NCBI GenBank assembly: GCA_934513685.1
Contig: CAKSWY010000002.1
Location: 57,946-121,945, forward strand
DNA length: 64,000 nt
DNA from: an uncultured Oscillospiraceae bacterium
GTDB taxonomy: Bacteria; Bacillota; Clostridia; Oscillospirales; Ruminococcaceae
Reading direction: 5' to 3'
This document shows positions 54,374 to 64,000 of this stretch, one piece after another. The position numbers and the translations under genes are program-made. Every line of letters starts with the position of its first letter. Position 1 is the stretch's first letter. The notes below the pieces were generated by a model that saw only the letters and a list, made by a program, of their open reading frames with translations, was not told the origin of the DNA and made no database searches.

Positions 54374-55441
54374 TCATTCCAATCCGGTTCCGTTCGTCCC
54401 ATGGTTCGTGTGCAGCGGCTGGCCGCAGTGGGGGCAAACCGCCGCCTGCGGGCTGACGCTGCCGTGACAGCAGGGGCACTGCCGCAGCCGCCCCGGCAGC
54501 GGCGGCGTACCCGCCGGGCCGCCGGTTTGGGCCATCGTGCCCACCGTCTGCTGCAAAGTAGGCCAGAGCTGGCTCAGCAGCAGTGCCTGCGCCAAAGGTG
54601 CGGCCATCCCGCCGCCGCTTGCCTGCCCGGCGCTGCTGCCCCGGGCAGGCAGGCCCGTCATGGCTTCCGCCAGCGTGCGCCGGTCCAGGTTTCCGCCCCA
54701 GATCCGTTCCAGATGGTCCTTCTCCAGGTCGGTCTGCGTGCGGCCCGCGGCCTCTTTGCCTTCCAGCTCGTGCAGGCGCGCCCAGCCTTCCTCGGGAATG
54801 TTCACGGCCGTCACCGCAAACTGTTCCAGGCTCAGGCCAAACTCTGCCAGCGCCTGGGACAGCGGGCCGCGGGTCTCGGCCCCAATGGCCCCAAGACTTC
54901 GGTTAAACTCCACAATGGTGTGGCGGTTGAGCGCCCCGGCCAGAGTCTGCCGCAAGGGGGCCAGCACCAGCTGGCGCAGGCAGGGCTCCAGATCCTCGTC
55001 CGAGAACACGGCCTGATAGGTGCCCACCATCGTTTCCAGCGTCTGCAGCGGGTCCGCAATGCGGTAGGCCAAGCTGCACGAGGCCAGCGCCTCCATGGTC
55101 AGCCGGTAGCGCCGCTCCTCAAAGGGGATCGGCCCGGTGCCCAGCTGCATGAAGTTCGTTCTCTGGGTGGACACAAAGAACACGGTCACGCTCACCGGTG
55201 CTTCCCCACCGGTCATCAAATTGCGCAGCCGCACGAAGAAGGGGTCCACCCCGGTCATTAATTCGTAGCGCCCGGGCCAGTACGGCCCGACCACCTGCCC
55301 GTTAAGGGCGACAAAGGCCTGGGTTCCGGCCGGCACCAGCAGCACACTGCCGTTTACCACCGTCCGCCCCGGGCCGCAAAGCTCCGGCATCACGCGAATC
55401 AGGCTGCTTCCGCCCGGATCACGAATCACCCGCTGCAGCAT
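54374..55441 (-). CDS. SPFH/band-7 domain protein with C-terminal zinc ribbon
   Basis: 355 aa; RBS AGGAGGTG; SPFH-like core (PVSVTVFFVSTQRTNFMQLGTGPIPFEERRYRLTMEALASCSLAYRIADP); C-terminal CPCCHG...CPHCGQ zinc ribbon. Confidence 0.65.
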   Translation of the reverse strand: MLQRVIRDPGGSSLIRVMPELCGPGRTVVNGSVLLVPAGTQAFVALNGQVVGPYWPGRYELMTGVDPFFVRLRNLMTGGEAPVSVTVFFVSTQRTNFMQLGTGPIPFEERRYRLTMEALASCSLAYRIADPLQTLETMVGTYQAVFSDEDLEPCLRQLVLAPLRQTLAGALNRHTIVEFNRSLGAIGAETRGPLSQALAEFGLSLEQFAVTAVNIPEEGWARLHELEGKEAAGRTQTDLEKDHLERIWGGNLDRRTLAEAMTGLPARGSSAGQASGGGMAAPLAQALLLSQLWPTLQQTVGTMAQTGGPAGTPPLPGRLRQCPCCHGSVSPQAAVCPHCGQPLHTNHGTNGTGLE

Positions 55442-55460
55442 GGGTACACCTCCTGTTGAT

Positions 55461-56441
55461 TCAGCGGCTCGCCTGTTTCATAAGGGCAACGGCCCTCAGC
55501 GAAGCCACATGGTAAATGTTCCAGCATCCCGGCAGGCCGCGCAAGGCCTCGTGGATCGCCCGGCCCATCTGCGCATCGGTACACGGCGGCTGCATCTGCC
55601 CGTAGGCCATGCCGCCCTGCGCGGCACCGCTGCGCAGATGGCCGGTCAGCTCTGCCAGTGAGCAGACGCTGTGCCCGTGCAGCCGGTAATAGCTGTACGC
55701 CTCGGTGCGGCAGACGGGCAGGCCCTGCCCGGCAAACCCGCTGTGGTCCCGCGAGATCTGCTCGTCCGTCAGGTTGAAATACCGGTAGAGCATCGCGCCT
55801 TTCCCCGGCTTCTCCCAGGTCACATCGCAGTGCACCGGTTCGCCGTTCAGCCAGACCATCGCCCAGCAGTGGCCCTCCGTGCGCCCTCTCCCGAGGATTT
55901 GAACGCAGGCCACCCCGGCCCGGCGCAGGCAGTACAGCAGCAGGGCGTTCTGCCCCTCGCACACGCCCCGTGCGGTCAGCAGCGGCCCCACCAGATTGTG
56001 CTCCTGCTCGCTTCGGGTGTTCTGGTAGCGCAGCTGCCGGGCCAGCCGAATGTAAATGAGTTCTTCCCGCTGCACAAGGCTCAGGGCCGCCGTTCCGGCC
56101 ATCAACGGCAACATTTTCTGCCGGAAGGCCGCCTGCAATGTCTCGATTTCCGCAGGCGTATACAGCATTTGCAGCCGAAGCTTCCCTTCCTGCCCGCCGC
56201 GGTATAAGAAGGTCATCTGCCGCCCGAGGAAGAAGTACTCCGGCCGGTCATGCCGCAGGGCCTTGCAGGCAGCAAAGGCATCGTCGTATGCCCGTTCCCA
56301 CTTTTCCAGCGTCAGCGGAACCTCGGCGCGGTAATCTCCCCCGGCCAGGCGACGGTCCAGCTCATCGTAGAACCGCCTCGCCTGCCCGGGCGGCAGCCGG
56401 TCCCTGTAAAAACAGCGGCCCAGGGCGTGCGGCTCGCTCAT
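55461..56441 (-). CDS. Transglutaminase-like cysteine protease-fold protein
   Basis: 326 aa; RBS GGAAGAGGAGGG; the ATG overlaps the JAB stop (ATGA/TGA coupling). Cys-His-Asp triad context GVCEGQNALLLYCLRRAGV...GHCWAMVWLNG...HCDVTW. Confidence 0.7.
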   Translation of the reverse strand: MSEPHALGRCFYRDRLPPGQARRFYDELDRRLAGGDYRAEVPLTLEKWERAYDDAFAACKALRHDRPEYFFLGRQMTFLYRGGQEGKLRLQMLYTPAEIETLQAAFRQKMLPLMAGTAALSLVQREELIYIRLARQLRYQNTRSEQEHNLVGPLLTARGVCEGQNALLLYCLRRAGVACVQILGRGRTEGHCWAMVWLNGEPVHCDVTWEKPGKGAMLYRYFNLTDEQISRDHSGFAGQGLPVCRTEAYSYYRLHGHSVCSLAELTGHLRSGAAQGGMAYGQMQPPCTDAQMGRAIHEALRGLPGCWNIYHVASLRAVALMKQASR

Positions 56442-56442
56442 G

Positions 56443-57339
56443 TCAGCCCTCCTCTTCCTTCGGCCTGCCCGGAATCGTCAGTGTGACGCGCACTTTGGTG
56501 CAGCGGCGCAGCTTTCCGGTAACACAGCGGACGGTGCCTTTTGCCCCGTCCATGCGCAGGCAGCGGCTGGCCAGCTTCATCAATGCCTCCACCGGGAACT
56601 CCGGCATGGGGTGCTCCGTCTCCGCCGGGTGCGGCGCTTCTTTGGCCGCGGCCTTTGCGGTGCGGCGGCACACGATCACCTGGGCATTCTCAAAGTTTTT
56701 GCCGATGCTGGCCAGCATCTGGCGGCGAATGGGGTCGCACACAAAGATGCACACCGGCGCTTTGGCCGCCCGGGCTTCTCCGCTGCTGCGGTCCGTCCCG
56801 GACCAGAACACGCCCAGATCCGGGTGGGTGTGGCCCTCCAGGCAGTATTCACTGGGCCCGTACTCCAAAAACGGGTCCACCACGCACCCTTGGGCATCCC
56901 GGTTGAAGCGCTTTTCGTCCCGAAGGTACTCGTCCCGGTAATACTCCAGAAAGTCCAGCCCCGGGTTGTTCTCCCCGTTGGGGCCAAGGCCGGAGGCGGA
57001 GCTTCTCGTCCGGTTCATGGTGTGCACCTGCAGAAAGTGGCTGACCACCACGTTCACCCGGCCGTCCTTCTCCAGGAAGAAATGCCCCAGCCCGATGTAT
57101 TTCTGCTCCAAATGGTTCATGGGGGAACGGCGGCCGTAGCTCACCATCATGGTCAGTTCTTCGGCGGCTTCCGGCAGAAAGAACACGTAGTGTCGGCCCT
57201 TGCCGTGGCGCTCTGCCTGAAAGCTGCCGCAGTTCTTCTCAATCACCGCGGCGATCTCCACCGCGCTCAGCACCGGATACGTGCGGGACGGCGTAATGGG
57301 GCGCGGCGGCAACGGCGGGCAGTTCGTTTTCACTTCCAT
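56443..57339 (-). CDS. JAB/JAMM (MPN+) metallo-isopeptidase
   Basis: 298 aa; RBS AAAGGAGAA; JAMM zinc motif EGHTHPDLGVFWSGTD = H-x-H-x7-S-x2-D, with upstream Glu. Confidence 0.8.
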   Translation of the reverse strand: MEVKTNCPPLPPRPITPSRTYPVLSAVEIAAVIEKNCGSFQAERHGKGRHYVFFLPEAAEELTMMVSYGRRSPMNHLEQKYIGLGHFFLEKDGRVNVVVSHFLQVHTMNRTRSSASGLGPNGENNPGLDFLEYYRDEYLRDEKRFNRDAQGCVVDPFLEYGPSEYCLEGHTHPDLGVFWSGTDRSSGEARAAKAPVCIFVCDPIRRQMLASIGKNFENAQVIVCRRTAKAAAKEAPHPAETEHPMPEFPVEALMKLASRCLRMDGAKGTVRCVTGKLRRCTKVRVTLTIPGRPKEEEG

Positions 57340-57380
57340 CGCATGTTCTCCTTTGCTTGCGGGCCTTGCCCGGAGGTTCT

Positions 57381-58008
57381 TTAGCTGCGGCGCGGCAGCG
57401 GGGGCGGCGTGCCCGTGCCGGGGACCGCGCGGCGCACCGGAAGCGGCGGCCGCTGCGGGGCCTCCAGCAGCTTGGGCGAAATGGTGGGAAAGCGCCCGCT
57501 CGCCACACCGGCCCGGTGCCAGTCCGCCACATCGCCGTTGGCCATGGAGTCATAGCGGGTCACCGCCGGGTCGTGGATCATATCCTTCACCAGCTTTTCC
57601 GCCACCGTGAGCATCGAGCTGGTATAAATTTTCCATTCGTCAATGCAGGCGGCCCCGCTGCGGAATACGTTGGGGCTGGCCAGCCGCCGCTTTGCCGGGT
57701 AGGCAGCTTTCACGCTTTTCAGCGGATAGCCCAGAAACACCGCCACCTCCGCGCTCATAGAGGAACAGCTCTTGGGGGAAGCGTCGTCCCGGTCGGTGAG
57801 GTAATGGCTGGGGGCGTGCACCGTGATCCGGAAACGAAACTCCTCGCCCGGCTCACAGGCCACCTCCTCCACCGTCACATACCGGGGGTTGAACATACCC
57901 CGCAGAACGTTCCAGTCGTTGCGGATGGCCTCGCGGGATTCCCCGTCCGAAATGGAAACGGGCACGCTGCTGCCCCGCTCGTCCGTATAAGTCGTGCTGT
58001 ATGCCATG
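57381..58008 (-). CDS. Ubiquitin-conjugating enzyme (E2/UBC fold)-like protein
   Basis: ~209 aa from ATG 58008 (RBS AAGGAGGAG). UBC-like core EFRFRITVHAP..YPLKSVKAAYPAKRRLASPNVFRSGAACIDEW aligns to the eukaryotic E2 Y-P-F-K-P-P-K-V-x-F...HPN(V/I)...G-x-(I/V)-C-L-D block, including the catalytic Cys. Confidence 0.7.
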
Positions 58009-58020
58009 CTTCTCCTCCTT

Positions 58021-59279
58021 TTACTCCAAATGCTGCACCCGATGCATCTGCTCCGGGTCGCCCCGCAGGGCAAACACAAGCGTTTCCCGGCTGCCGTTGG
58101 CCTGCGTGCAGAGCACCTTCAGATGCGCGCCCAGCGGGTAGCCCAGCTGAAACAGGGTCCGTTCTTTCATCTCCGGGTCGCTCTCGGGCGAAAATGCATA
58201 AAGCACATCATCCATTGCGAAATCCACGTCGTACCGGGCCGGGCGGCCGACGGCGCGGCAGGCCTCACAGCGCAGATCCTGCAAAAAGGTGCGGCCCTCG
58301 TGCCGCATCACCTTGATAGGCGCGCCGCAGACGTGGCACAGGTCGCTGCGGATGAACCCGGTGTAGGTGCGCTGGTTGTAATTCAGCCAGTGAACCTGCA
58401 GCTCAAAGGCTGCCTGACCCAGCCGGGCGGCGATCTGCTCCAGCGCCTGTCCCAGCGTAAGTTCCAGCACCGTGCCCTCCAGCCAGAGGATCTCCTTCGG
58501 CGGCTGAACCGCACAGCCCGGGCAGCCCCGCTTCGCCTTGGGGTGGGTCACGGTCAGCTCCATATTCGGATAGGCGTAATAGGTCAGGCGCCGGTTCATG
58601 GCCTCTTTCACGCCGATCACCTGCGCGCGGAATTGCTCCGCCGTCAGGTTGGCCGCATGGCTGCTGGCCAGCCCGCTGGTGCGCACCGGCACCGTCTCAC
58701 CGTCCACCGCGCGCAGCTGCGGCCCGCTGCAGGAGGTGCGCACGGCTCCGTTTTCCAGCCAGCGCTCGTCCATCAGGCAGCGCAGGCAGAACTCTCGGCC
58801 GTCCATCATGACACTGCGCGCCATTTCGTCCTGCGTTCCGTCCATAATCACCACCGGGCGGCGCTCCGGCGGCAGCTGCATCCACAGCTCGTTGAACAGG
58901 GCCTTGGCCGCGTAATTGTCCAGGCACAGCACCACCACGTCGTAGTCCGCCAGTGCCTCCGGGCCGATCCTGCACAGGTCCGTGTCCACCCCGTTTGCGG
59001 TGCAGCCCTCTTCCAGAAACGGCTGCACCCGCCGGGCCACGCACCGGGCCTTGTTTTGGCCCACATCCTCCGGCGTGCGCACCAGGCAGCTGTGCTTGGC
59101 GGCATTTTCCAGCGTAAAGGTGTCAAAGTCGAGCAGGTCCAGGCTGCATCCCATTTTCACCAGCGCTTCCGCCACGTTAGACCCCACCGCGCCCGCGCCG
59201 CAAATGAGCACGCGTTTTCCGCCGAACAGCGGCCGATAGGCCGACAGCTTCAACGGATTGTACAGACGATCCTCCATCA
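58021..59279 (-). CDS. ThiF/MoeB-type ubiquitin-activating (E1)-like enzyme with C-terminal Cys-rich domain
   Basis: ~419 aa from ATG 59279 (RBS AGGAGG). Rossmann motif KRVLICGAGAVGSNVAEALVKMG, then LDLLDFDTFTLENAAKH; four C-x-x-C pairs in the C-terminal third. Confidence 0.8.
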
Positions 59280-59312
59280 TTTCCTCCTGTTTTGTTTCCG
59301 TCCTCGGCGACC

Positions 59313-59786
59313 TCAAAGAATGGGCCGCCCGTTGGGGGCAATTCGATGGCCGTTCGGGCAGCGATAACATCCGGCCGTTTCATTCCAGAAAATTTTCTGG
59401 GGCTGCCCGGGCAGGTTCCGCGCCCGGTCGATTGGGCAGCACGGGAACTGATCCGGCCGAATGCCCCGCGGCCCCGCGCCTGCCGCCGGGAGGGTGCGTC
59501 GCACCGCCGGTTCCGACCGCGAGGGCCGGGCGGTTCGCGGGTTCCGGTGGTTGATCGGCTCTTCCCGCCGCGCCGGGCGTACGTTTGCCGGGGCGGCCAG
59601 TCTCGGCCGATTTCCCACAGGCTGCCGAAGCGCCGCCGGGCGGCTCGCGCTGCCTCTCCCCTGCGGCAGAGGCGGCGGCTGTCTGCTTTTGTACGATGGT
59701 TTGCTGCGGCGGTTCAGGGCCATCCAGGCAGCCCCACCGCCCAGCAGCAGAATCGCCCCCGCTGCAATGCAAATCCAGTTCAGCAT
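59313..59786 (-). CDS. Small membrane-anchored protein with Arg/Pro-rich disordered tail
   Basis: 157 aa; good RBS GAGGAAGGA 7 nt upstream of the ATG; N-terminal TM helix MLNWICIAAGAILLLGGGAAWMAL; the rest is low-complexity R/P-rich. High GC makes a spurious ORF possible. Confidence 0.4.
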   Translation of the reverse strand: MLNWICIAAGAILLLGGGAAWMALNRRSKPSYKSRQPPPLPQGRGSASRPAALRQPVGNRPRLAAPANVRPARREEPINHRNPRTARPSRSEPAVRRTLPAAGAGPRGIRPDQFPCCPIDRARNLPGQPQKIFWNETAGCYRCPNGHRIAPNGRPIL

Positions 59787-59828
59787 GTACGATTCCTTCC
59801 TCGTTTTGCGGTGTTTGTCCGAAAATGA

Positions 59829-60146
59829 TTAAGCCACGCCGCCGTCGTCCGAAATGGTCAGCACATCGCCGTTCATCAGCCCCATGCCCTCCACCGTCTC
59901 GTTCTCATCGCAGCTTTCCACACCGGTGCGCTTATTCACAAACACCAGCTTGGCCGCGTCCCTCCGGATTCCCAGATCCTGCGCATACGCGTCCAACAGC
60001 TGGCCCATGGTGTTGCCTCCCACCACCGGGACCTTGGCGTAGGTCACGCCGCTGCCCTTGTTCACCAGATCGATCTCCATCATGGTCTGGGTGGTGCTGT
60101 CCTGCATGGTCGCTTCGCTCGCATCAAATTTGTTCCGTTCCGTCAT
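59829..60146 (-). CDS. Ubiquitin-like (beta-grasp) protein with C-terminal ...GG-VA
   Basis: ~105 aa from ATG 60146 (RBS GAAAGGGAG). ~80-aa beta-grasp-sized core ending LTISDDGGVA*; first gene of the operon that also encodes E1, E2 and JAB. Confidence 0.7.
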   Translation of the reverse strand: MTERNKFDASEATMQDSTTQTMMEIDLVNKGSGVTYAKVPVVGGNTMGQLLDAYAQDLGIRRDAAKLVFVNKRTGVESCDENETVEGMGLMNGDVLTISDDGGVA

Positions 60147-60169
60147 GGTTCGTCTCCCTTTCTGCACTC

Positions 60170-60563
60170 ATACTGTGTGTTGTATCCGGATTCCGCAGCT
60201 TCTTGTGAAAGCCTCGTGTCCGGATTTCTTTATGTCAAAACTCTCGCCGCCGGATGCATATTGTCGGATATACGATGCAACTTTTCAAAATTTGCTGCAA
60301 TTGGAGGAATTGACGCGAAACAGCAAAAGCCGCGGTGTCTGCACACCGCGGCTTTTCTGCTTTATTTTATAGGACATATGGTACGATAGGCACGCACAGG
60401 GAAGGCTTTGCTGCATTGGCATTCCCCTCGAGAGGATTTGATTGGTGTTATCGCATTAATTGTTTACGTAATTACTTGCGGAAGCTTGAACGGCGGCCGA
60501 AATGGCAGCATATTAGATTCACATACGATATACTTTCTTTCCTTTGGAGCGTTCAACCTCCAA
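60170..60563. promoter_or_regulatory. AT-rich intergenic region between the Ubl operon and the CRISPR array (Ubl-operon promoter region / CRISPR trailer)
   Basis: ~400 bp, distinctly AT-richer than its surroundings. Four direct CCGGAT/TCGGAT repeats (60185, 60220, 60250, 60275) and a perfect 14-bp hairpin aaaagccgcggtgt-ctgc-acaccgcggctttt at 60325-60356. Confidence 0.45.
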
Positions 60564-62056
60564 GAGTCACCCCTGCGTATACGGGGGAAAAGCCAGCGCC
60601 ATCTGCAACTTCGCAATGGCCGTAGGATCACCCCCGCGCATGCGGGGAAAAGTCTCCGATAAAAACGGTGTTTCCGCCGGACGGGGGATCACCCCCGCGC
60701 ATGCGGGGAAAAGCTTTGACCCAAAGTTGGCCCGGTTGTGTCCTACGGGATCACCCCCGCGCATGCGGGGAAAAGGCCTGAACGACCGAGAAAATGCCCG
60801 CGATGGTGGGATCACCCCCGCGCATGCGGGGAGAAGAGTTTTTAAACGATGCACCGTCAGTCCATGTGGGGATCACCCCCGCGCATGCGGGGAGAAGTGT
60901 GAAAATCGGCCCGGACACCTACCGCAAAAAGGATCACCCCCGCGCATGCGGGGAGAAGTTGGCTTTTTACAATCCGTGTTATAGGGCTTTAGGATCACCC
61001 CCGCGCATGCGGGGAAAAGGGTAAAAGGTGCCGTCGCCGGGCACCAGCCAGGGGATCACCCCTGCGTATGCGGGGAAAAGCAGGCAAGGCCGGGGCCGAC
61101 GGTCACGGTCATGGGATCACCCCCGCGCATGCGGGGAAAAGTACCGATTTCGGCGGCACACGCCAATGTACTCAGGATCACCCCCGCGCATGCGGGGAAA
61201 AGTTTGTCGGCAGCTGCGTAAAGAATTCAACCACGGGATCACCCCCGCGCATGCGGGGAAAAGTGCAGCGCCGACTAAAAAATATAGGCAATGCCAGGAT
61301 CACCCCCGCGCATGCGGGGAAAAGAACATTTTTGCACATAACAGCGTACTTAAATTGGGATCACCCCCGCGCATGCGGGGAAAAGTTGTGCATAATTGTC
61401 CATATGCAGCACATCACAGGATCACCCCCGCGCATGCGGGGAAAAGAAACAGTCCTCAAAACCGACGACCCATCGGTTAGGATCACCCCCGCGCATGCGG
61501 GGAAAAGCAGCGTCCACAGCCCTGCAACAATCATACATAAGGATCACCCCCGCGCATGCGGGGAAAAGGAAATTTGTGCTTGATGGGATGCAAGCGGCGG
61601 GGGATCACCCCCGCGCATGCGGGGAAAAGAACTCGCCCGTCTCCATGTTCTCGACGCCCACAGGATCACCCCCGCGCATGCGGGGAAAAGTGAGTTATAA
61701 TAAAGACGATGAAAGGAGTGATAGGATCACCCCCGCGCATGCGGGGAAAAGACATTGTGAGGTGCGTATGAATTTTTTGAAGTGGGATCACCCCCGCGCA
61801 TGCGGGGAAAAGCATTTTTTGAGAAGGGGGGTGAATTTGTGAGCGGGATCACCCCCGCGCATGCGGGGAAAAGACACTCCCTGACGCAATCAACAACGGC
61901 GTCGAGGGATCACCCCCGCGCATGCGGGGAAAAGCCGGCGCATCTTCCACCCCCGAGGCCCGGAGCGGGATCACCCCCGCGCATGCGGGGAAAAGAAGGC
62001 TGCGATCGTATGTTTGGCCCGTGAGACGGGATCACCCCCGCGCATGCGGGGAAAAG
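60564..62056 (-). CRISPR. CRISPR array, type I-E-like: 25 repeats of 28 nt (GGATCACCCCCGCGCATGCGGGGAAAAG on + strand), 24 spacers of 32-34 nt
   Basis: 61-62 nt periodicity; the repeat has an internal CCCCGC-GCAT-GCGGGG hairpin. The repeat at 60564 is degenerate (gagtcacccctgcgtatacgggggaaaag); variants occur at 61053 and at 60809/60870/60931 (GAGAAG). Orientation is assigned tentatively from the degenerate terminal repeat and the co-oriented cas genes. Confidence 0.9.
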
Positions 62057-62073
62057 ACTAAAAAGATCCCGTA

Positions 62074-62967
62074 TCACCGACTGTATCCGTTGCGTTCCGC
62101 TCCATTTTCGTTTAGTTTCGCATAAACTTTCTGCGTCAAACGGCAGTCGGGCACCGCCCGGTGCTCTACCTTGTCTGCCAGCGCAAAATGCTGCGCCAGT
62201 GCAAGCAGTTTATAACTGGACAGGCCCAGTATTTTTCGCCGTGCAAGAGGAAGGAGATCGATTTTCCGGTTGGCCAAAACCGGTTTCATGTTCCGAATGC
62301 AGGCCATACGCAGAAATTCCAAATCAAATTGCAGGTTGTGTCCCACCAAAGTATCTTTGCCTACAAAGCGCAGGAACGCCTCCAGCGCATCCGCGGCGTC
62401 CATACCGCCTTCCAGTTCTTCCTGTGTGATGCCCGTCAGGCGGGCAATTTCTGCGGGCAACGGCGTTTCCAGCCGCACCAGCGCCGAAAACTCCTCTCCT
62501 GGCTGCCCATCCCGGACCCGGACCGCGCCATACTCCACGATTGCATCCGTTGCCGCATGCAGTCCTGTTGTTTCAAGGTCGATCACGGTATAATCCTGCT
62601 TTCCGGGCGGTCGGGCAGCTCTTTGCGCCATTTTCTGTGCCATCTGATACTTTGCCGCCTTGCTGAATCCCGGTTTCAGCTCCAACGCCTCGACCTGGGG
62701 TTGCGCTTGCGGAAGCGGACGGCGCATCAGCTTAATGCCGTCGTAATCCACCACTTCCCAGTTAGTATTATGGGTGCGGAATTCCATCTTCTGCTCGCCG
62801 GCCGCTGTATAGACCATCGTCGCCTGTCCATTTTTCAGGTACTGGCAGACCCGATCCCAGACCGCATCCCGCACGCGGCTGCTCACGTTCCCCACGTAGA
62901 CGCCGGTGTTGATCTCACACAGCCATTTGGACAGATCTCCCCGCAGGCGCGGCGGGCAGCTGGTCAT
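62074..62967 (-). CDS. cas2: CRISPR-associated Cas2 fused to DnaQ-like 3'-5' exonuclease (type I-E Cas2-DnaQ)
   Basis: N-terminus PPRLRGDLSKWLCEINTGVYVGNVSSRVRD matches E. coli Cas2 [26 protein letters not shown]. C-terminal DEDDh exonuclease motifs (VIDLETTGL, GHNLQFDLEFL, YSR). The true start is probably upstream at a non-ATG codon (~62982), restoring the IVVLT beta-strand. Confidence 0.85.
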   Translation of the reverse strand: MTSCPPRLRGDLSKWLCEINTGVYVGNVSSRVRDAVWDRVCQYLKNGQATMVYTAAGEQKMEFRTHNTNWEVVDYDGIKLMRRPLPQAQPQVEALELKPGFSKAAKYQMAQKMAQRAARPPGKQDYTVIDLETTGLHAATDAIVEYGAVRVRDGQPGEEFSALVRLETPLPAEIARLTGITQEELEGGMDAADALEAFLRFVGKDTLVGHNLQFDLEFLRMACIRNMKPVLANRKIDLLPLARRKILGLSSYKLLALAQHFALADKVEHRAVPDCRLTQKVYAKLNENGAERNGYSR

Positions 62968-62975
62968 CGTCAGAA

Positions 62976-63929
62976 CTACAATGGCTCCTCACCCTCTTCC
63001 CAGGCAGCATAGTTGATGCCGTTGGACACCGTGCCGAGGTTGTTGTCCCAAAGATACACGGCATCCGGTTCTTCCATCTGTTCTCCGTCGCTCAGCAGCA
63101 GCCAGCGAATGTCATGCACCATCCGTTCCAGAATATGGTGCTCCACCATGGCATCCCGCACACGGCGGCGCACAACGGCAGGCAGGTCTTCCGGTGCCTG
63201 CGTTGCAACCTCAAATGCGATGGGAATGGTCACCTCGGCCTTATACAGGTCTGCAATGTCGTACACAAAAGAACACTCATGGCCGACATGCACAAACCCC
63301 AGCCCTGGTGCGCAGCCCAACGCGACAATGACCGCATGCGCCAGCCCATACAGGCACGCATGCCCGGCCGACAGCGCCTGATTGACCAGGTCTCCTAACG
63401 CAAAATCCTCCGGGCGGTACAGCCGTCCACTCCATGGCACGCCGGTTTCTTTGGACGCCTTGCGGTAGACGTTCCTCACACGGCTGCCCTCCCGGCCGCG
63501 TAGCTGCTGCATCGTAAGGTTGGAAACATCTTCTTCAGGGAAACGCAGCTGATACATCTTACGCACCACGTCCAAATGCTTCCGTTGGTTGCTGACAAGT
63601 TCTGCCTGCCGAATCAGCATCCTGGAATGGGTGGTCAGCGGGCGTCCGTGGGCGTAGTAGCGCACGCCGTGCTCTCCCACCCAGACAGCTCCCACGCCGG
63701 TATCGCCCATCAGCTCCATAGCGCGATGGGTCACGCGGGTGCCAGGCCCAAGCAGCAGCACCGAGATGCCCGCCGCCGGGATCTGGACGACGCCTTTTTC
63801 GTCCGTCACGGTAATGGCACCGTCCTGCCGCCCCAGCGTACAGTGTTCCAGATACAGAAACGTCATCCGGTCTTTTACCTGTGGCAGTGCCTGCAAATCA
63901 GGCCGGATCATGCCCGGAAGTTCATCCAT
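62976..63929 (-). CDS. cas1: CRISPR-associated endonuclease Cas1, type I-E
   Basis: 317 aa; closely alignable to E. coli Cas1/YgbT (GTRVTHRAM, VWVGEHGVRYYA, DVVRKMYQLRF, LRGREGSRVR, GFVHVGHECSFVYDIADLYK); RBS GGAGGAA. Confidence 0.92.
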   Translation of the reverse strand: MDELPGMIRPDLQALPQVKDRMTFLYLEHCTLGRQDGAITVTDEKGVVQIPAAGISVLLLGPGTRVTHRAMELMGDTGVGAVWVGEHGVRYYAHGRPLTTHSRMLIRQAELVSNQRKHLDVVRKMYQLRFPEEDVSNLTMQQLRGREGSRVRNVYRKASKETGVPWSGRLYRPEDFALGDLVNQALSAGHACLYGLAHAVIVALGCAPGLGFVHVGHECSFVYDIADLYKAEVTIPIAFEVATQAPEDLPAVVRRRVRDAMVEHHILERMVHDIRWLLLSDGEQMEEPDAVYLWDNNLGTVSNGINYAAWEEGEEPL

Positions 63930-63956
63930 GGCCAGTTCCTCCGCGCAGGATCGTCA

Positions 63957-64000
63957 TCAAGCCAAGGCCGTAGGCTTTGCCGCGGCCAATGCCCTGACAC
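63957..64000 (-). CDS. 3' end of upstream cas gene (partial; possibly cas6e by I-E gene order)
   Basis: Minus-strand reading ...VRALAAAKPTALA* ends 27 nt upstream of cas1. Only 14 codons are visible; identity is inferred from canonical I-E order. Confidence 0.3.
   Translation of the reverse strand, partial: VRALAAAKPTALA

Follow-up and report, generated by a model that had tools for sequence, protein, structure and literature searches.

The CRISPR array analysed here is very probably part of a standard, active type I-E locus that is ordered along the minus strand and whose compact leader runs into the 3' end of cas2-dnaQ. We assign it the conventional orientation (cas operon, leader, array, all on the minus strand) because five independent lines of evidence agree: the architecture of the repeat, the decay of repeats at the cas-distal end, the arrays of sister strains, a 5' AA PAM and an E. 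coli-like leader-repeat junction. A sequence-only reading of the window, by which we mean the whole 64,000-nt stretch of DNA that was analysed, had preferred minus-strand transcription, and each of these lines bears it out; the same reading called the orientation unusual, and it is instead the canonical one for type I-E. Features are collected in Table 1, and negative positions are counted upstream from repeat 1.

Table 1. Features of the CRISPR-Cas locus and its flanks, in coordinates of the window.
Feature	Position	Strand	Basis or remark
cas1, type I-E, 317 aa	62976-63929	-	ORF; PADLOC Cas1e, E=2e-130
cas2-dnaQ fusion, 297 aa	62074-62967	-	ORF; PADLOC Cas2e and DEDDh
Functional leader (proposed), -62 to -1	62057-62118	-	45% GC; blocks in 58 species, fixed spacing, synonymous-site constraint
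Distal leader block AAACTAAACGAAAA, -62 to -49	62105-62118	-	Family consensus AARYTNAATGAAA
Leader-repeat junction motif GGGATCTTTTTAGT, -14 to -1	62057-62070	-	Proposed first integration attack site
CRISPR array	60564-62056	-	25 repeats of 28 nt, 24 spacers
Repeat 1, newest end	62029-62056	-	
Terminal degenerate repeat, mark of the trailer end	60564-60591	-	7/28 mismatches
Trailer (predicted), 207 nt	60357-60563	-	43.5% GC; conserved among strains; not leader
Intrinsic terminator hairpin (putative)	60325-60356	-	14-bp stem, 4-nt loop, then UUUUGCUGUUU on minus strand
Promoter-like site TTGAAA-17-GACAAT, Ubl/E1 operon	60260-60288	-	Consensus match only
Ubl/E1 operon, first gene	59829-60146	-	Gene order

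A type I-E locus of the Cas2-DnaQ family

[quoted passage not shown] PADLOC matches in Cas2-DnaQ place Cas2e at residues 1-115 and the DEDDh domain at residues 128-282, the protein carries an ExoIII H-x4-D motif (HRAVPDC, with the His codon at 62161-62163), and a phmmer search of the PDB retrieves Megasphaera Cas2-DEDDh (8fy9, E=6e-52) and S. thermophilus DnaQ (8h18, E=2e-29). The window edge falls just upstream of cas1, where cas6e is expected from a contig of the same strain (L001). On this contig, Pfam matches identify cas3-cse1-cse2-cas7-cas5-cas6e-cas1-cas2dnaQ on one strand, and both its Cas2-DnaQ and its array are identical to those of the window. The assignment to the subgroup draws on Cas1e, the Cas2e-DEDDh fusion, the Cascade genes of L001 and the repeat/spacer format, together with the 5'-AA-3' PAM seen with sister-strain spacers and the comparative evidence for polarised acquisition described below.

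Polarity of the array

The array has a period of 61 nt, with 23 spacers of 33 nt and one of 34 nt. Its repeat reads GGATCACCCCCGCGCATGCGGGGAAAAG on the plus strand and CTTTTCCCCGCATGCGCGGGGGTGATCC on the minus strand; the latter is identical at 24 of 28 positions to the CRISPR4 repeat of S. thermophilus DGCC7710, GTTTTTCCCGCACACGCGGGGGTGATCC (PMC3890593 Table 1), so that the likeness which the sequence-only reading had pointed out is real. The same repeat as in S. thermophilus CRISPR4 is carried by a further locus of the comparison, L102. On the cas coding strand the repeat is laid out as 5 nt, a 16-nt GC hairpin and 7 nt (the ...GTGATCC handle), which is the type I-E arrangement. An Rfam search of 59000-64000 at a relaxed threshold matched no family of CRISPR repeats and gave only a mir-92 match within the array that is due to chance, and an ORF of 171 aa that lies within the array is spurious. 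The degenerate repeat reported at 60564 is present with its mismatches, although its length is 28 nt and not the 29 nt first given; the remaining variant repeats, with one or two mismatches each, all fall within the cas-distal third of the array.

Sister strains (n=10, L005-L014), recovered by a look-up with the neighbouring Ubl protein, show which end of the array is growing. Exact-protein look-ups with Cas2-DnaQ, Cas1, P0001 and the 171-aa ORF returned only the same strain or a contig lacking an array, and carried no polarity information. The sister-strain arrays hold 4-40 spacers and have no leader-proximal spacer in common. The terminal, cas-distal spacer is common to nine of the ten (it is absent in L014 and in the window), and the degenerate repeat and the trailer are the same in all ten. 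Mutated repeats are confined to the cas-distal side in the window and in nine sister strains, L014 adding one mid-array repeat with a single mismatch. This comparison, which had been suggested as a check, identifies the cas2-proximal end as the growing one, and the diversity among strains indicates, as far as sequence can tell, that the array is actively acquiring spacers. New spacers would thus go in at the cas2-proximal repeat.

Protospacer flanks, likewise proposed earlier as a means of locating the PAM side, point the same way. Among about ten protospacers, a small sample from Faecalibacterium phage FP_Lugh and small circular viruses and all matched by sister-strain spacers, AA lies directly 5' of the protospacer (cas-strand orientation) in seven flanks, and the 3' side is without a motif. 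Spacer position 1 is C or T in 199 of 210 spacers; an AA PAM and a C/T preference at this position have likewise been published for S. thermophilus. The sole protospacer match for the window's own spacers is that of spacer 4 to an Inovirus record, with five mismatches and a CA flank. An exact scan of IMG/VR with window spacers 1, 3, 5 and 6 gave no matches, a search of plasmids with the window spacers gave none, and BLAST of the window array against phages matched other arrays and nothing else.

The reverse orientation, in which the AT-rich stretch at 60170-60563 would act as leader and promoter for plus-strand transcription of the array towards cas2 and new spacers would be added beside 60564, must be weighed against these observations. 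That flank does look like a textbook leader, being 394 nt long with about 45% GC, and the palindromic stem of the repeat would give a hairpin on either strand. However, the degenerate repeat and the spacer common to nine of the ten strains sit here while the opposite end is fully variable, the PAM is on the side expected of a minus-strand crRNA, and the plus-strand handle would have 5 nt against the 7-8 nt typical of type I-E. A plus-strand promoter-like site was not found in 60170-60563, the predicted trailer (60357-60563) included, and a conserved junction motif with fixed spacing marks the cas2 end in some 60 species. Nor is the far flank (43.5-45% GC in a window of 60.6%) the only AT-rich sequence at hand, as had been supposed: the 60 nt upstream of repeat 1 (62057-62116, minus strand) are equally AT-rich, at 45% GC. 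We regard the reverse orientation as next to impossible, and transcription from the far side towards cas2, which the sequence-only reading had kept as its alternative, is contradicted by a cas2-proximal end that varies and grows and by a fixed anchor at 60564.

A compact leader at the end of cas2-dnaQ

Given the minus-strand orientation, the leader has to be sought where cas2-dnaQ meets repeat 1. The gap between the stop codon (TGA on the minus strand, 62074-62076) and the first repeat is exactly 17 nt (62057-62073), as had been stated. The conclusion drawn from it, that a conventional leader is lacking, did not hold: a leader is present and is compact, about 62 bp, and the accompanying suggestion of a leader that overlaps cas2-dnaQ at its 3' end is supported. 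Only 62057-62073 is non-coding; the remaining 62074-62118 overlaps the stop and the last 14 codons of the gene.

This geometry is shared across the family. From the ExoIII His codon to repeat 1 the distance is 105-108 nt in 62 of about 70-80 species-level Cas2-DnaQ loci, and exactly 107 nt in 35 of those 62; across the same 62 loci the gap from stop to repeat 1 ranges from 21 to 55 nt. The S. thermophilus-type locus L102 has 107 nt with a stop gap of 20 nt, and the Negativicutes locus L086 has 107 nt with a gap of 38 nt. The supposedly unusual leader position, with its short stop-repeat gap, is therefore the norm in the Cas2-DnaQ family, L102 included. A hairpin of terminator type in the gap between stop and repeat 1 was considered as a family trait and rejected; it occurs in about a dozen species and is not found in the window (z=+2.2).

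Three leader blocks are conserved with fixed spacing: the junction at -14 to -1, an A-run near -30 and AARYTNAATGAAA at -62 to -49. The junction motif is the most conserved block outside the repeat in 58 leaders (1.0-1.8 bits per position); the window reads TTTTTAGT/C at the junction, and the longer form TCTTTTTAGT/C is found in the window and the family. The distal block AAACTNAATGAA coincides with the codons K-L-N-E, the last conserved codons of cas2-dnaQ (62107-62118), and is constrained at synonymous sites: N is AAT in 44 of 45 loci, E is GAA in 55 of 55 and L is YTR (p=2e-20). The constraint begins at the L codon; of the 45 codons upstream of the His codon, those that are conserved and were tested all lack a comparable bias. 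In 58 of 68 loci the distal motif is found at -63 to -61, and L059, L089 and L095, where it is out of frame or non-coding, are among them (-62/-63). The window differs from the consensus at two leader positions: it has AAC for AAT, and its weak A-run is absent at -31 to -28. A scan for IHF sites found the strict pattern WATCARNNNNTTR in one of 58 leaders, and the same regular expression also misses the E. coli site. A literature search found no description of an overlap between leader and cas2-dnaQ, which is weak negative evidence.

In an alignment of homologues, conservation stops at ...KLNE and the tails beyond it differ, the longest being that of the window (10 aa after KLNE, NGAERNGYSR, non-conserved). 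This tail is translated leader DNA. In the arrangement that we propose, the DnaQ domain would end at ...KLNE, with exactly 50 nt left to repeat 1, and the frame would then run on through the leader until a chance stop ends it, 33 nt further on in the window strain and after 0-30 nt in most relatives. By analogy with the leader of E. coli, with its junction, a middle bent by IHF and an integrase-anchoring site upstream at about -50, the three blocks may place Cas1-Cas2/DnaQ on repeat 1, probably with the help of a host protein that bends DNA. On the same analogy the distal block is a candidate for the upstream site at which the integrase or a host factor is anchored. That the K-L-N-E codons (AARYTNAATGAA, -62 to -50) have a dual use, completing the exonuclease fold and serving as the distal recognition element of the ~62-bp leader, is in our judgement an evenly balanced proposition. 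A gene end with such a dual use is modestly interesting.

Two other explanations of the conserved blocks compete with this proposal. The overlap may have no cis function, in which case spacing and codon bias would stem from constraint on the protein or its translation, or from ancestry, and the leader would amount to the junction of about 14 nt. KLNE closes the last DEDDh helix and is hence conserved as protein, in type II-A systems a short leader-anchoring sequence beside repeat 1 is enough (PMC8616872), and the Megasphaera complex makes no base-specific leader contacts in vitro (PMC10284694). Yet synonymous positions are fixed in the L, N and E codons only, whereas in the same genes those for His, Asp, Cys and Lys vary freely. 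The motif also keeps its position where it is out of frame (L059) or lies beyond the stop in non-coding sequence (L089, L095), and the 35 nt between the blocks are constant in length (+/-1) across phyla despite being free to vary in sequence. We find an overlap without cis function quite improbable.

Alternatively, a dedicated promoter inside the 3' end of cas2-dnaQ, as put forward in the sequence-only reading, could make most of the pre-crRNA, the conserved blocks being promoter elements and not integration signals. Eight of 59 related loci do carry TTGCAA-17-TA[ACG]AAT at a fixed position, with the -10 element ending at -38 and straddling the stop, and in L089 a perfect extended -10 (TGTTATAAT) stands at that position; in E. 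coli CRISPR-1 the transcription start lies some 50 nt ahead of repeat 1 (PMC10011333), and the window itself has a weak TTGACG-19-TAAACG whose -10 ends at -53. Most loci, however, lack a consensus-like site, the window among them: no sigma-70-like site matching at least 9 of 12 positions was found upstream of repeat 1, the best (the site just named) reaching 8/12. The most constrained sequence, AATGAA at -55 to -50, falls in the promoter spacer of the eight loci and not in a hexamer, the sixth -10 position near -26 has no conserved T, and there is no strong terminator between the cas genes and the array. The blocks themselves were tried as -35 and -10 hexamers and rejected; their spacing would be compatible with this, whereas the conserved bases mismatch key -10 positions. 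A dedicated internal promoter is possible, though on the unlikely side.

Transcription, processing and the far end of the locus

Under the minus-strand reading, pre-crRNA would most likely arise by read-through from the cas operon, from a weak promoter in the 3' end of cas2-dnaQ, or from both; the lack of a strong terminator between cas genes and array means that read-through is available. Because the repeat is homologous to that of S. thermophilus CRISPR4, for which the crRNA ends have been determined experimentally, we infer that the minus-strand transcript would be processed to crRNA of 61 nt, in which GUGAUCC forms a 5' handle of 7 nt, the spacer takes up 33 nt and a 3' hairpin handle the last 21 nt.

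The AT-rich sequence at the far end comprises a predicted trailer, a putative terminator and a predicted promoter of the next operon. The perfect hairpin noted earlier at 60325-60356 is present, and its minus-strand RNA folds at -41.3 kcal/mol (z=-5.4), with none of 200 shuffles as good. Its probable role is to terminate the cas/CRISPR transcript and to shield the Ubl/E1 operon beyond it.

Implications

The Cas2-DnaQ family is widespread in gut bacteria, and its arrays would be mis-oriented by rules that take the longer or the more AT-rich non-coding flank as their guide or that assume at least 100 nt of leader after cas2. The right orientation can be obtained from the strand of the repeat, the distal repeat decay and the TTTTTAGT junction. 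The comparison also defines a compact leader of three blocks with fixed spacing, one of them inside coding sequence. Published experiments in vitro did not reproduce the leader-proximal specificity of Cas1-Cas2/DEDDh, and these blocks are concrete targets for mutagenesis and for a search for the host factor. If the dual use of KLNE is true, its DNA would be the analogue of the integrase-anchoring site of E. coli and would point to the sequence read by the leader-specificity factor of Cas1-Cas2/DEDDh. Integrase gene and integration site would then be physically interlocked in a constant 107-nt register in Clostridia, Negativicutes, Actinobacteria and other phyla.

Comparison with known systems

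E. coli K-12 CRISPR-1 has the same order of cas2, leader and repeat 1, and its leader end, ...ATGTATACTTTTAGA/GAGTTCCCCGCG, shares the junction motif (CTTTTAG) with the window. The junction of the window, TTTTTAGT/C, resembles CTTTTAGA/G of E. coli (longer form ACTTTTAGA/G). An A-run lies around -30 to -35 in the E. coli leader and likewise near -30 in the Cas2-DnaQ family. The conserved elements of the E. coli leader span about 60 bp, with the IHF site at -9 to -35 and a second block at -44 to -59, and the leader of the window about 62 bp. The integrase-anchoring site of E. coli, at -50 to -53, is similar in position to the distal block of the window and unrelated in sequence (GAAA in the window, GTGG in E. 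coli, at -53 to -50), so the likeness is positional only. E. coli differs further in that its Cas2 has no DnaQ fusion and that a non-coding gap of 105 nt separates cas2 from the array, with a sigma-70 promoter in the leader, whereas the window has a gap of 17 nt and, upstream of repeat 1, no site of at least 9/12.

The best structural homologue is the Cas1-Cas2/DEDDh 'trimmer-integrase' of Megasphaera NM10 (8FY9; PMC10284694), which has both the Cas2 and the DEDDh domains and ends in ...KLNK. It uses a TT PAM, the complement of AA, and its repeat belongs to the same family as that of the window; L086 is a related Negativicutes locus. In vitro this complex was without leader specificity, and a missing IHF-like factor was proposed (PMC10284694); any reading of the leader therefore needs a host factor; overlap of leader and gene is not discussed in that report.

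S. thermophilus DGCC7710 CRISPR4 has a Cas1e and Cas2-DnaQ adaptation module as in the window. It differs in several respects: the host of the window is a Faecalibacterium with 60% GC, the S. thermophilus DnaQ domain is only distantly related to that of the window (E=2e-29), and the C-terminal tail that extends into the leader has another sequence. No natural acquisition had been reported for CRISPR4 as of a 2013 review. L102, a locus distinct from that of DGCC7710 with a DnaQ domain 95% identical and an internal stop in the gene, has the junction GGGATCTTTTAGT/G and the same geometry as the window. The format of CRISPR4 matches that of the window throughout, with a repeat of 28 nt, spacers of 33 nt, a unit of 61 nt, an AA PAM and C or T at spacer position 1.

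Array and adaptation genes

The array, its genes, the 17-nt gap between the cas2-dnaQ stop codon and the nearest repeat (62057-62073), a degenerate distal repeat and a hairpin, all described in an earlier sequence-only reading, were found again, and that description is thus accurate apart from two corrections. The degenerate repeat is present, with mismatches at 7/28 positions, but measures 28 nt (60564-60591) rather than 29. Nor is AT-richness unique to the far flank: in the 60 nt that precede repeat 1 (the cas2-proximal repeat, 62029-62056) on the minus strand, GC content is about the same (45% versus 43.5-45% in the far flank; whole window 60.6%). Spacers are 33 nt long in 23/24 cases and 34 nt in one. 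Among solved structures, the window Cas2-DnaQ is closest to Megasphaera Cas2-DEDDh (8fy9, E=6e-52) and to the DnaQ domain of S. thermophilus (8h18, E=2e-29). Spurious long ORFs span the repeats, such as 61068-61583 (+), with periodic peptides (…PRMRGK… / …PAHAGK…), and public assemblies of this strain annotate them as genes.

Features of the CRISPR locus and its far flank
Feature	Position	Strand	Remarks
cas1	62976-63929	minus	PADLOC model Cas1e; directly right of array
cas2-dnaQ fusion	62074-62967	minus	297 aa; PADLOC models Cas2e and DEDDh
cas2-dnaQ stop codon	62074-62076	minus	
CRISPR array	60564-62056		25 copies of 28-nt repeat, 61-nt period, 24 spacers
Trailer			207 nt, after terminal repeat and before hairpin; strain-conserved
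Hairpin	60325-60356		14-bp stem; minus-strand RNA fold -41.3 kcal/mol (z=-5.4), then UUUUGCUGUUU
Promoter-like site	60288-60260		upstream of Ubl/E1 operon
Operon directly downstream of array	54374-60146	minus	syntenic in 10/10 sister strains

Direction of the array

Five independent lines concur in placing the array on the minus strand, heading away from cas2, as the sequence-only reading had favoured. Read on the minus strand, the repeat (CTTTTCCCCGCATGCGCGGGGGTGATCC) is laid out as in type I-E, with 5 nt, a 16-nt GC stem-loop and a 7-nt tail. Its suspected likeness to the CRISPR4 repeat of S. thermophilus DGCC7710 is borne out, with 24/28 positions identical (PMC3890593, Table 1); in the crRNA of that system, as determined experimentally, a 33-nt spacer is flanked by a 5' handle of 7 nt and a 3' handle of 21 nt. 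Repeat decay is restricted to the cas-distal end in the window, where the remaining variant repeats carry 1-2 mismatches each, all within the distal third, and in 9/10 sister strains (L005-L014, ten other human-gut strains of the same synteny, found by looking up the neighbouring Ubl protein); the exception, L014, has a single mid-array repeat with one mismatch as well. The sequence before repeat 1, GGGATCTTTTTAGT/C, is similar to the leader-repeat junction of E. coli K-12, ...ATGTATACTTTTAGA/G.

Strain comparison had been proposed as a way to see which end grows. The ten sister arrays hold 4 to 40 spacers with nothing in common at the cas2 end; the terminal spacer is identical in 9/10, and the degenerate repeat (60564 end) and trailer in 10/10. 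With a variable cas2 end and a fixed distal end, the cas2-proximal end is therefore the growing one. The terminal spacer common to nine strains is absent from the window and L014, and window spacer 17 is the second-to-last spacer of L010, a pattern (window 60592-60624 and 61020-61052; L010, L014) that points to recombination or internal deletions at the array's old end.

The protospacers detected by a BLAST search of 210 spacers of these strains against phage genomes, also proposed earlier, lie in Faecalibacterium phage FP_Lugh, two small circular 'Inovirus sp.' genomes and two faecal phage contigs. In cas-strand orientation, AA lies directly 5' of the match in 7 of about 10 protospacers, and no motif was found on their 3' side. 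Spacer position 1 is C or T in 199/210 spacers. Published work on S. thermophilus gives an AA PAM too, with C/T preferred at spacer position 1, and the Megasphaera enzyme recognises TT, the complement of AA (PMC10284694). The alternative raised by the AT-rich far flank, that the array is read from there towards cas2, is effectively excluded by repeat architecture, decay, strains, PAM side and junction motif.

One matched genome, a 4425-bp circular 'Inovirus sp.' from pig (MT135286.1; also MT135312.1), is hit by seven spacers from five Faecalibacterium strains, one exactly and the rest with 3-5 mismatches (window spacer 4 included); these matches suggest that the element or a relative infects Faecalibacterium. 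Arrays belonging to the window's repeat family also occur in two INPHARED 'Bacteriophage sp.' entries from human faeces, MT835722.1 (13155-14587) and MT838183.1, with 34 matching places in one of them; either these entries are misfiled bacterial contigs or the arrays are borne by phages.

Gene-to-repeat spacing

The short gap and the leader position had been considered unusual; across Cas2-DnaQ loci this layout is the norm. We used a Cas2-DnaQ alignment to scan one genome per species, yielding 80 loci; the closest, at 79% identity, are from Faecalibacterium, and the rest come from other Oscillospiraceae, Lachnospiraceae, Negativicutes, Parolsenella and Kiritimatiellaeota-labelled MAGs, among others. 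Wherever an array is present, its repeat, read along the cas coding strand, follows the pattern CTTTTCCCCGC....GCGGGGGTGATCC. The distance from the catalytic ExoIII His codon to the start of repeat 1 is 105-108 nt in 62 of about 70 measurable loci (exactly 107 nt in 35 of the 62), a register in which repeat 1 lies 50 nt past the final conserved residues, ...KLNE. The stop codon varies in position, 21-55 nt before repeat 1 in the 62 fixed-register loci; the window gap is the shortest because its reading frame extends furthest, by 10 extra non-conserved residues. The geometry recurs in an S. thermophilus-type locus (L102), whose repeat is identical to that of DGCC7710 and whose DnaQ domain matches the crystallised one at 95% identity: repeat 1 lies 107 nt past the His codon, the gap is 20 nt and the junction reads GGGATCTTTTAGT/G. 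Its cas2-dnaQ (L102 5001-5936) contains an in-frame stop (…LDNY-stop-LQTALK…) that probably truncates the DnaQ domain; leader and array are intact.

A leader overlapping cas2-dnaQ

Alignment of 58 distinct leaders, anchored on repeat 1, revealed three stretches of conservation, counted upstream of repeat 1: GGGATCTTTTTAGT at -14..-1, an A-run near -31..-28 and AAACTGAATGAAA at -62..-49. Between them lie about 35 variable nt of constant length. Since the distal block coincides with the K-L-N-E codons, we tested whether its conservation is merely protein-level. Among 63 loci, N is AAT in 44/45 and E is GAA in 55/55, against background A/T-ending usage of 58% and 56% (earlier 57-locus run), and for Leu the choice is limited to CTG/CTA/TTA (p=2e-20). 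Synonymous codons are used freely at the remaining conserved codons that we tested (His, Asp, Cys, Lys, Tyr, Ala, Thr, Leu), which were drawn from the 45 upstream of the His codon and from those after it.

The distal motif lies at -63..-61 in 58/68 loci, and it persists where the gene end is rearranged. In L059 (6830-6962), an 11-nt insertion changes the frame (protein end ...AIAQTE), with AAACTGAATGAA still at -63. In L089 (6940-7090), the gene ends 78 nt before repeat 1 and a 43-nt insertion puts the KLNE-coding motif outside the coding sequence, leaving AAGTTAAATGAA non-coding at -62. In L095 (6770-6984), a degenerate repeat lies 12 nt past the stop codon, and beyond it come a decayed pseudo-copy of the final ~25 cas2-dnaQ codons and a full leader; the functioning leader contains the pseudo-copy, with AAGTTAAAGAAA at -62. 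At the level of sequence comparison, these three natural rearrangements confirm a DNA-level constraint on the distal block. Blocks, codon bias and motif positions together point to a functional leader of about 62 bp, of which the proximal 17 nt alone would be non-coding in the window, upholding the earlier proposal that leader function overlaps the 3' end of cas2-dnaQ.

Transcription of the array

The cas genes and array are co-directional, with one weak, chance-level terminator-like site between them (five sites found versus 3.7 expected), so read-through from the cas operon is possible. Upstream of repeat 1 in the window, no sigma-70-like site scores at least 9/12; the best candidate is TTGACG-19-TAAACG, ending at -53. 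A good promoter-like site, TTGCAA-17-TA[ACG]AAT, lies at a fixed position across the stop codon (-66 to -38) in 8/59 related loci (L019-L023, L025, L026, L028), its -35 formed by Tyr-Cys-Lys codons and its -10 overlapping the stop codon. In L089, that position is occupied by a perfect extended -10, TGTTATAAT; the window has no equivalent. These loci point to an embedded promoter in part of the Cas2-DnaQ family that is not a general feature. About a dozen species (for example L072, L073, L067, L082, L083, L093, L040; -35 to -1) carry an A-run/GC hairpin/T-run between cas2-dnaQ and repeat 1, whose tail is the conserved T-run of the junction motif. This structure, absent between gene and repeat 1 in the window, may be terminator-like or a palindromic binding site. 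For the window strain, we infer read-through, with or without a weak internal promoter, and rank it above a dedicated promoter.

Far flank and downstream operon

Given its strong minus-strand fold and the sequence that follows it, UUUUGCUGUUU, the hairpin is probably the intrinsic terminator of the cas/CRISPR transcript. It is terminator-like on the plus strand as well, and no plus-strand gene among the window ORFs ends there. The 'leader-like' AT-rich far region thus reads as trailer, predicted terminator and putative promoter of the next operon. That operon encodes 105-aa Ubl-like, 157-aa, ThiF/E1-like (PADLOC 'E1-E2' models, E down to 1e-13), 208-aa, 298-aa (JAMM-like motif HTHPD...S..D), transglutaminase-like and SPFH/Band-7 proteins, and may be a ubiquitin-like conjugation defence system adjoining the CRISPR locus.

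Comparison with known systems

The locus matches the Cas2-DnaQ subgroup of type I-E in each defining feature that could be tested. Our literature search, a weak negative, found no paper remarking on the leader/cas2-dnaQ overlap, the fixed 107-nt register or the synonymous constraint; those working on S. thermophilus and Megasphaera cloned 'the leader' and made no comment on it (Megasphaera: PMC10284694). The modestly novel element is the dual-use end of the cas2-dnaQ gene, and array-orientation rules relying on AT-rich or long flanks fail for such loci.

Wang et al. found that the Megasphaera integrase alone cannot distinguish leader side from spacer side and invoked a host factor (PMC10284694); the leader blocks are obvious candidates for the sequence read by that factor, or by the complex bound to it. 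Scanning the leaders with a strict IHF consensus was uninformative. E. coli K-12 has a Cas2 without a DnaQ domain and a 105-nt gap, and the window lacks the long non-coding, promoter-bearing segment of an E. coli-type leader. In the E. coli leader, an IHF site spans -9..-35, and a further conserved block, at -44..-59, contains an integrase-anchoring site at -50..-53 (PMC5224486). The positional match with the Cas2-DnaQ leader blocks suggests that a three-part logic is shared, although the upstream block differs in sequence between the E. coli and Cas2-DnaQ leaders.
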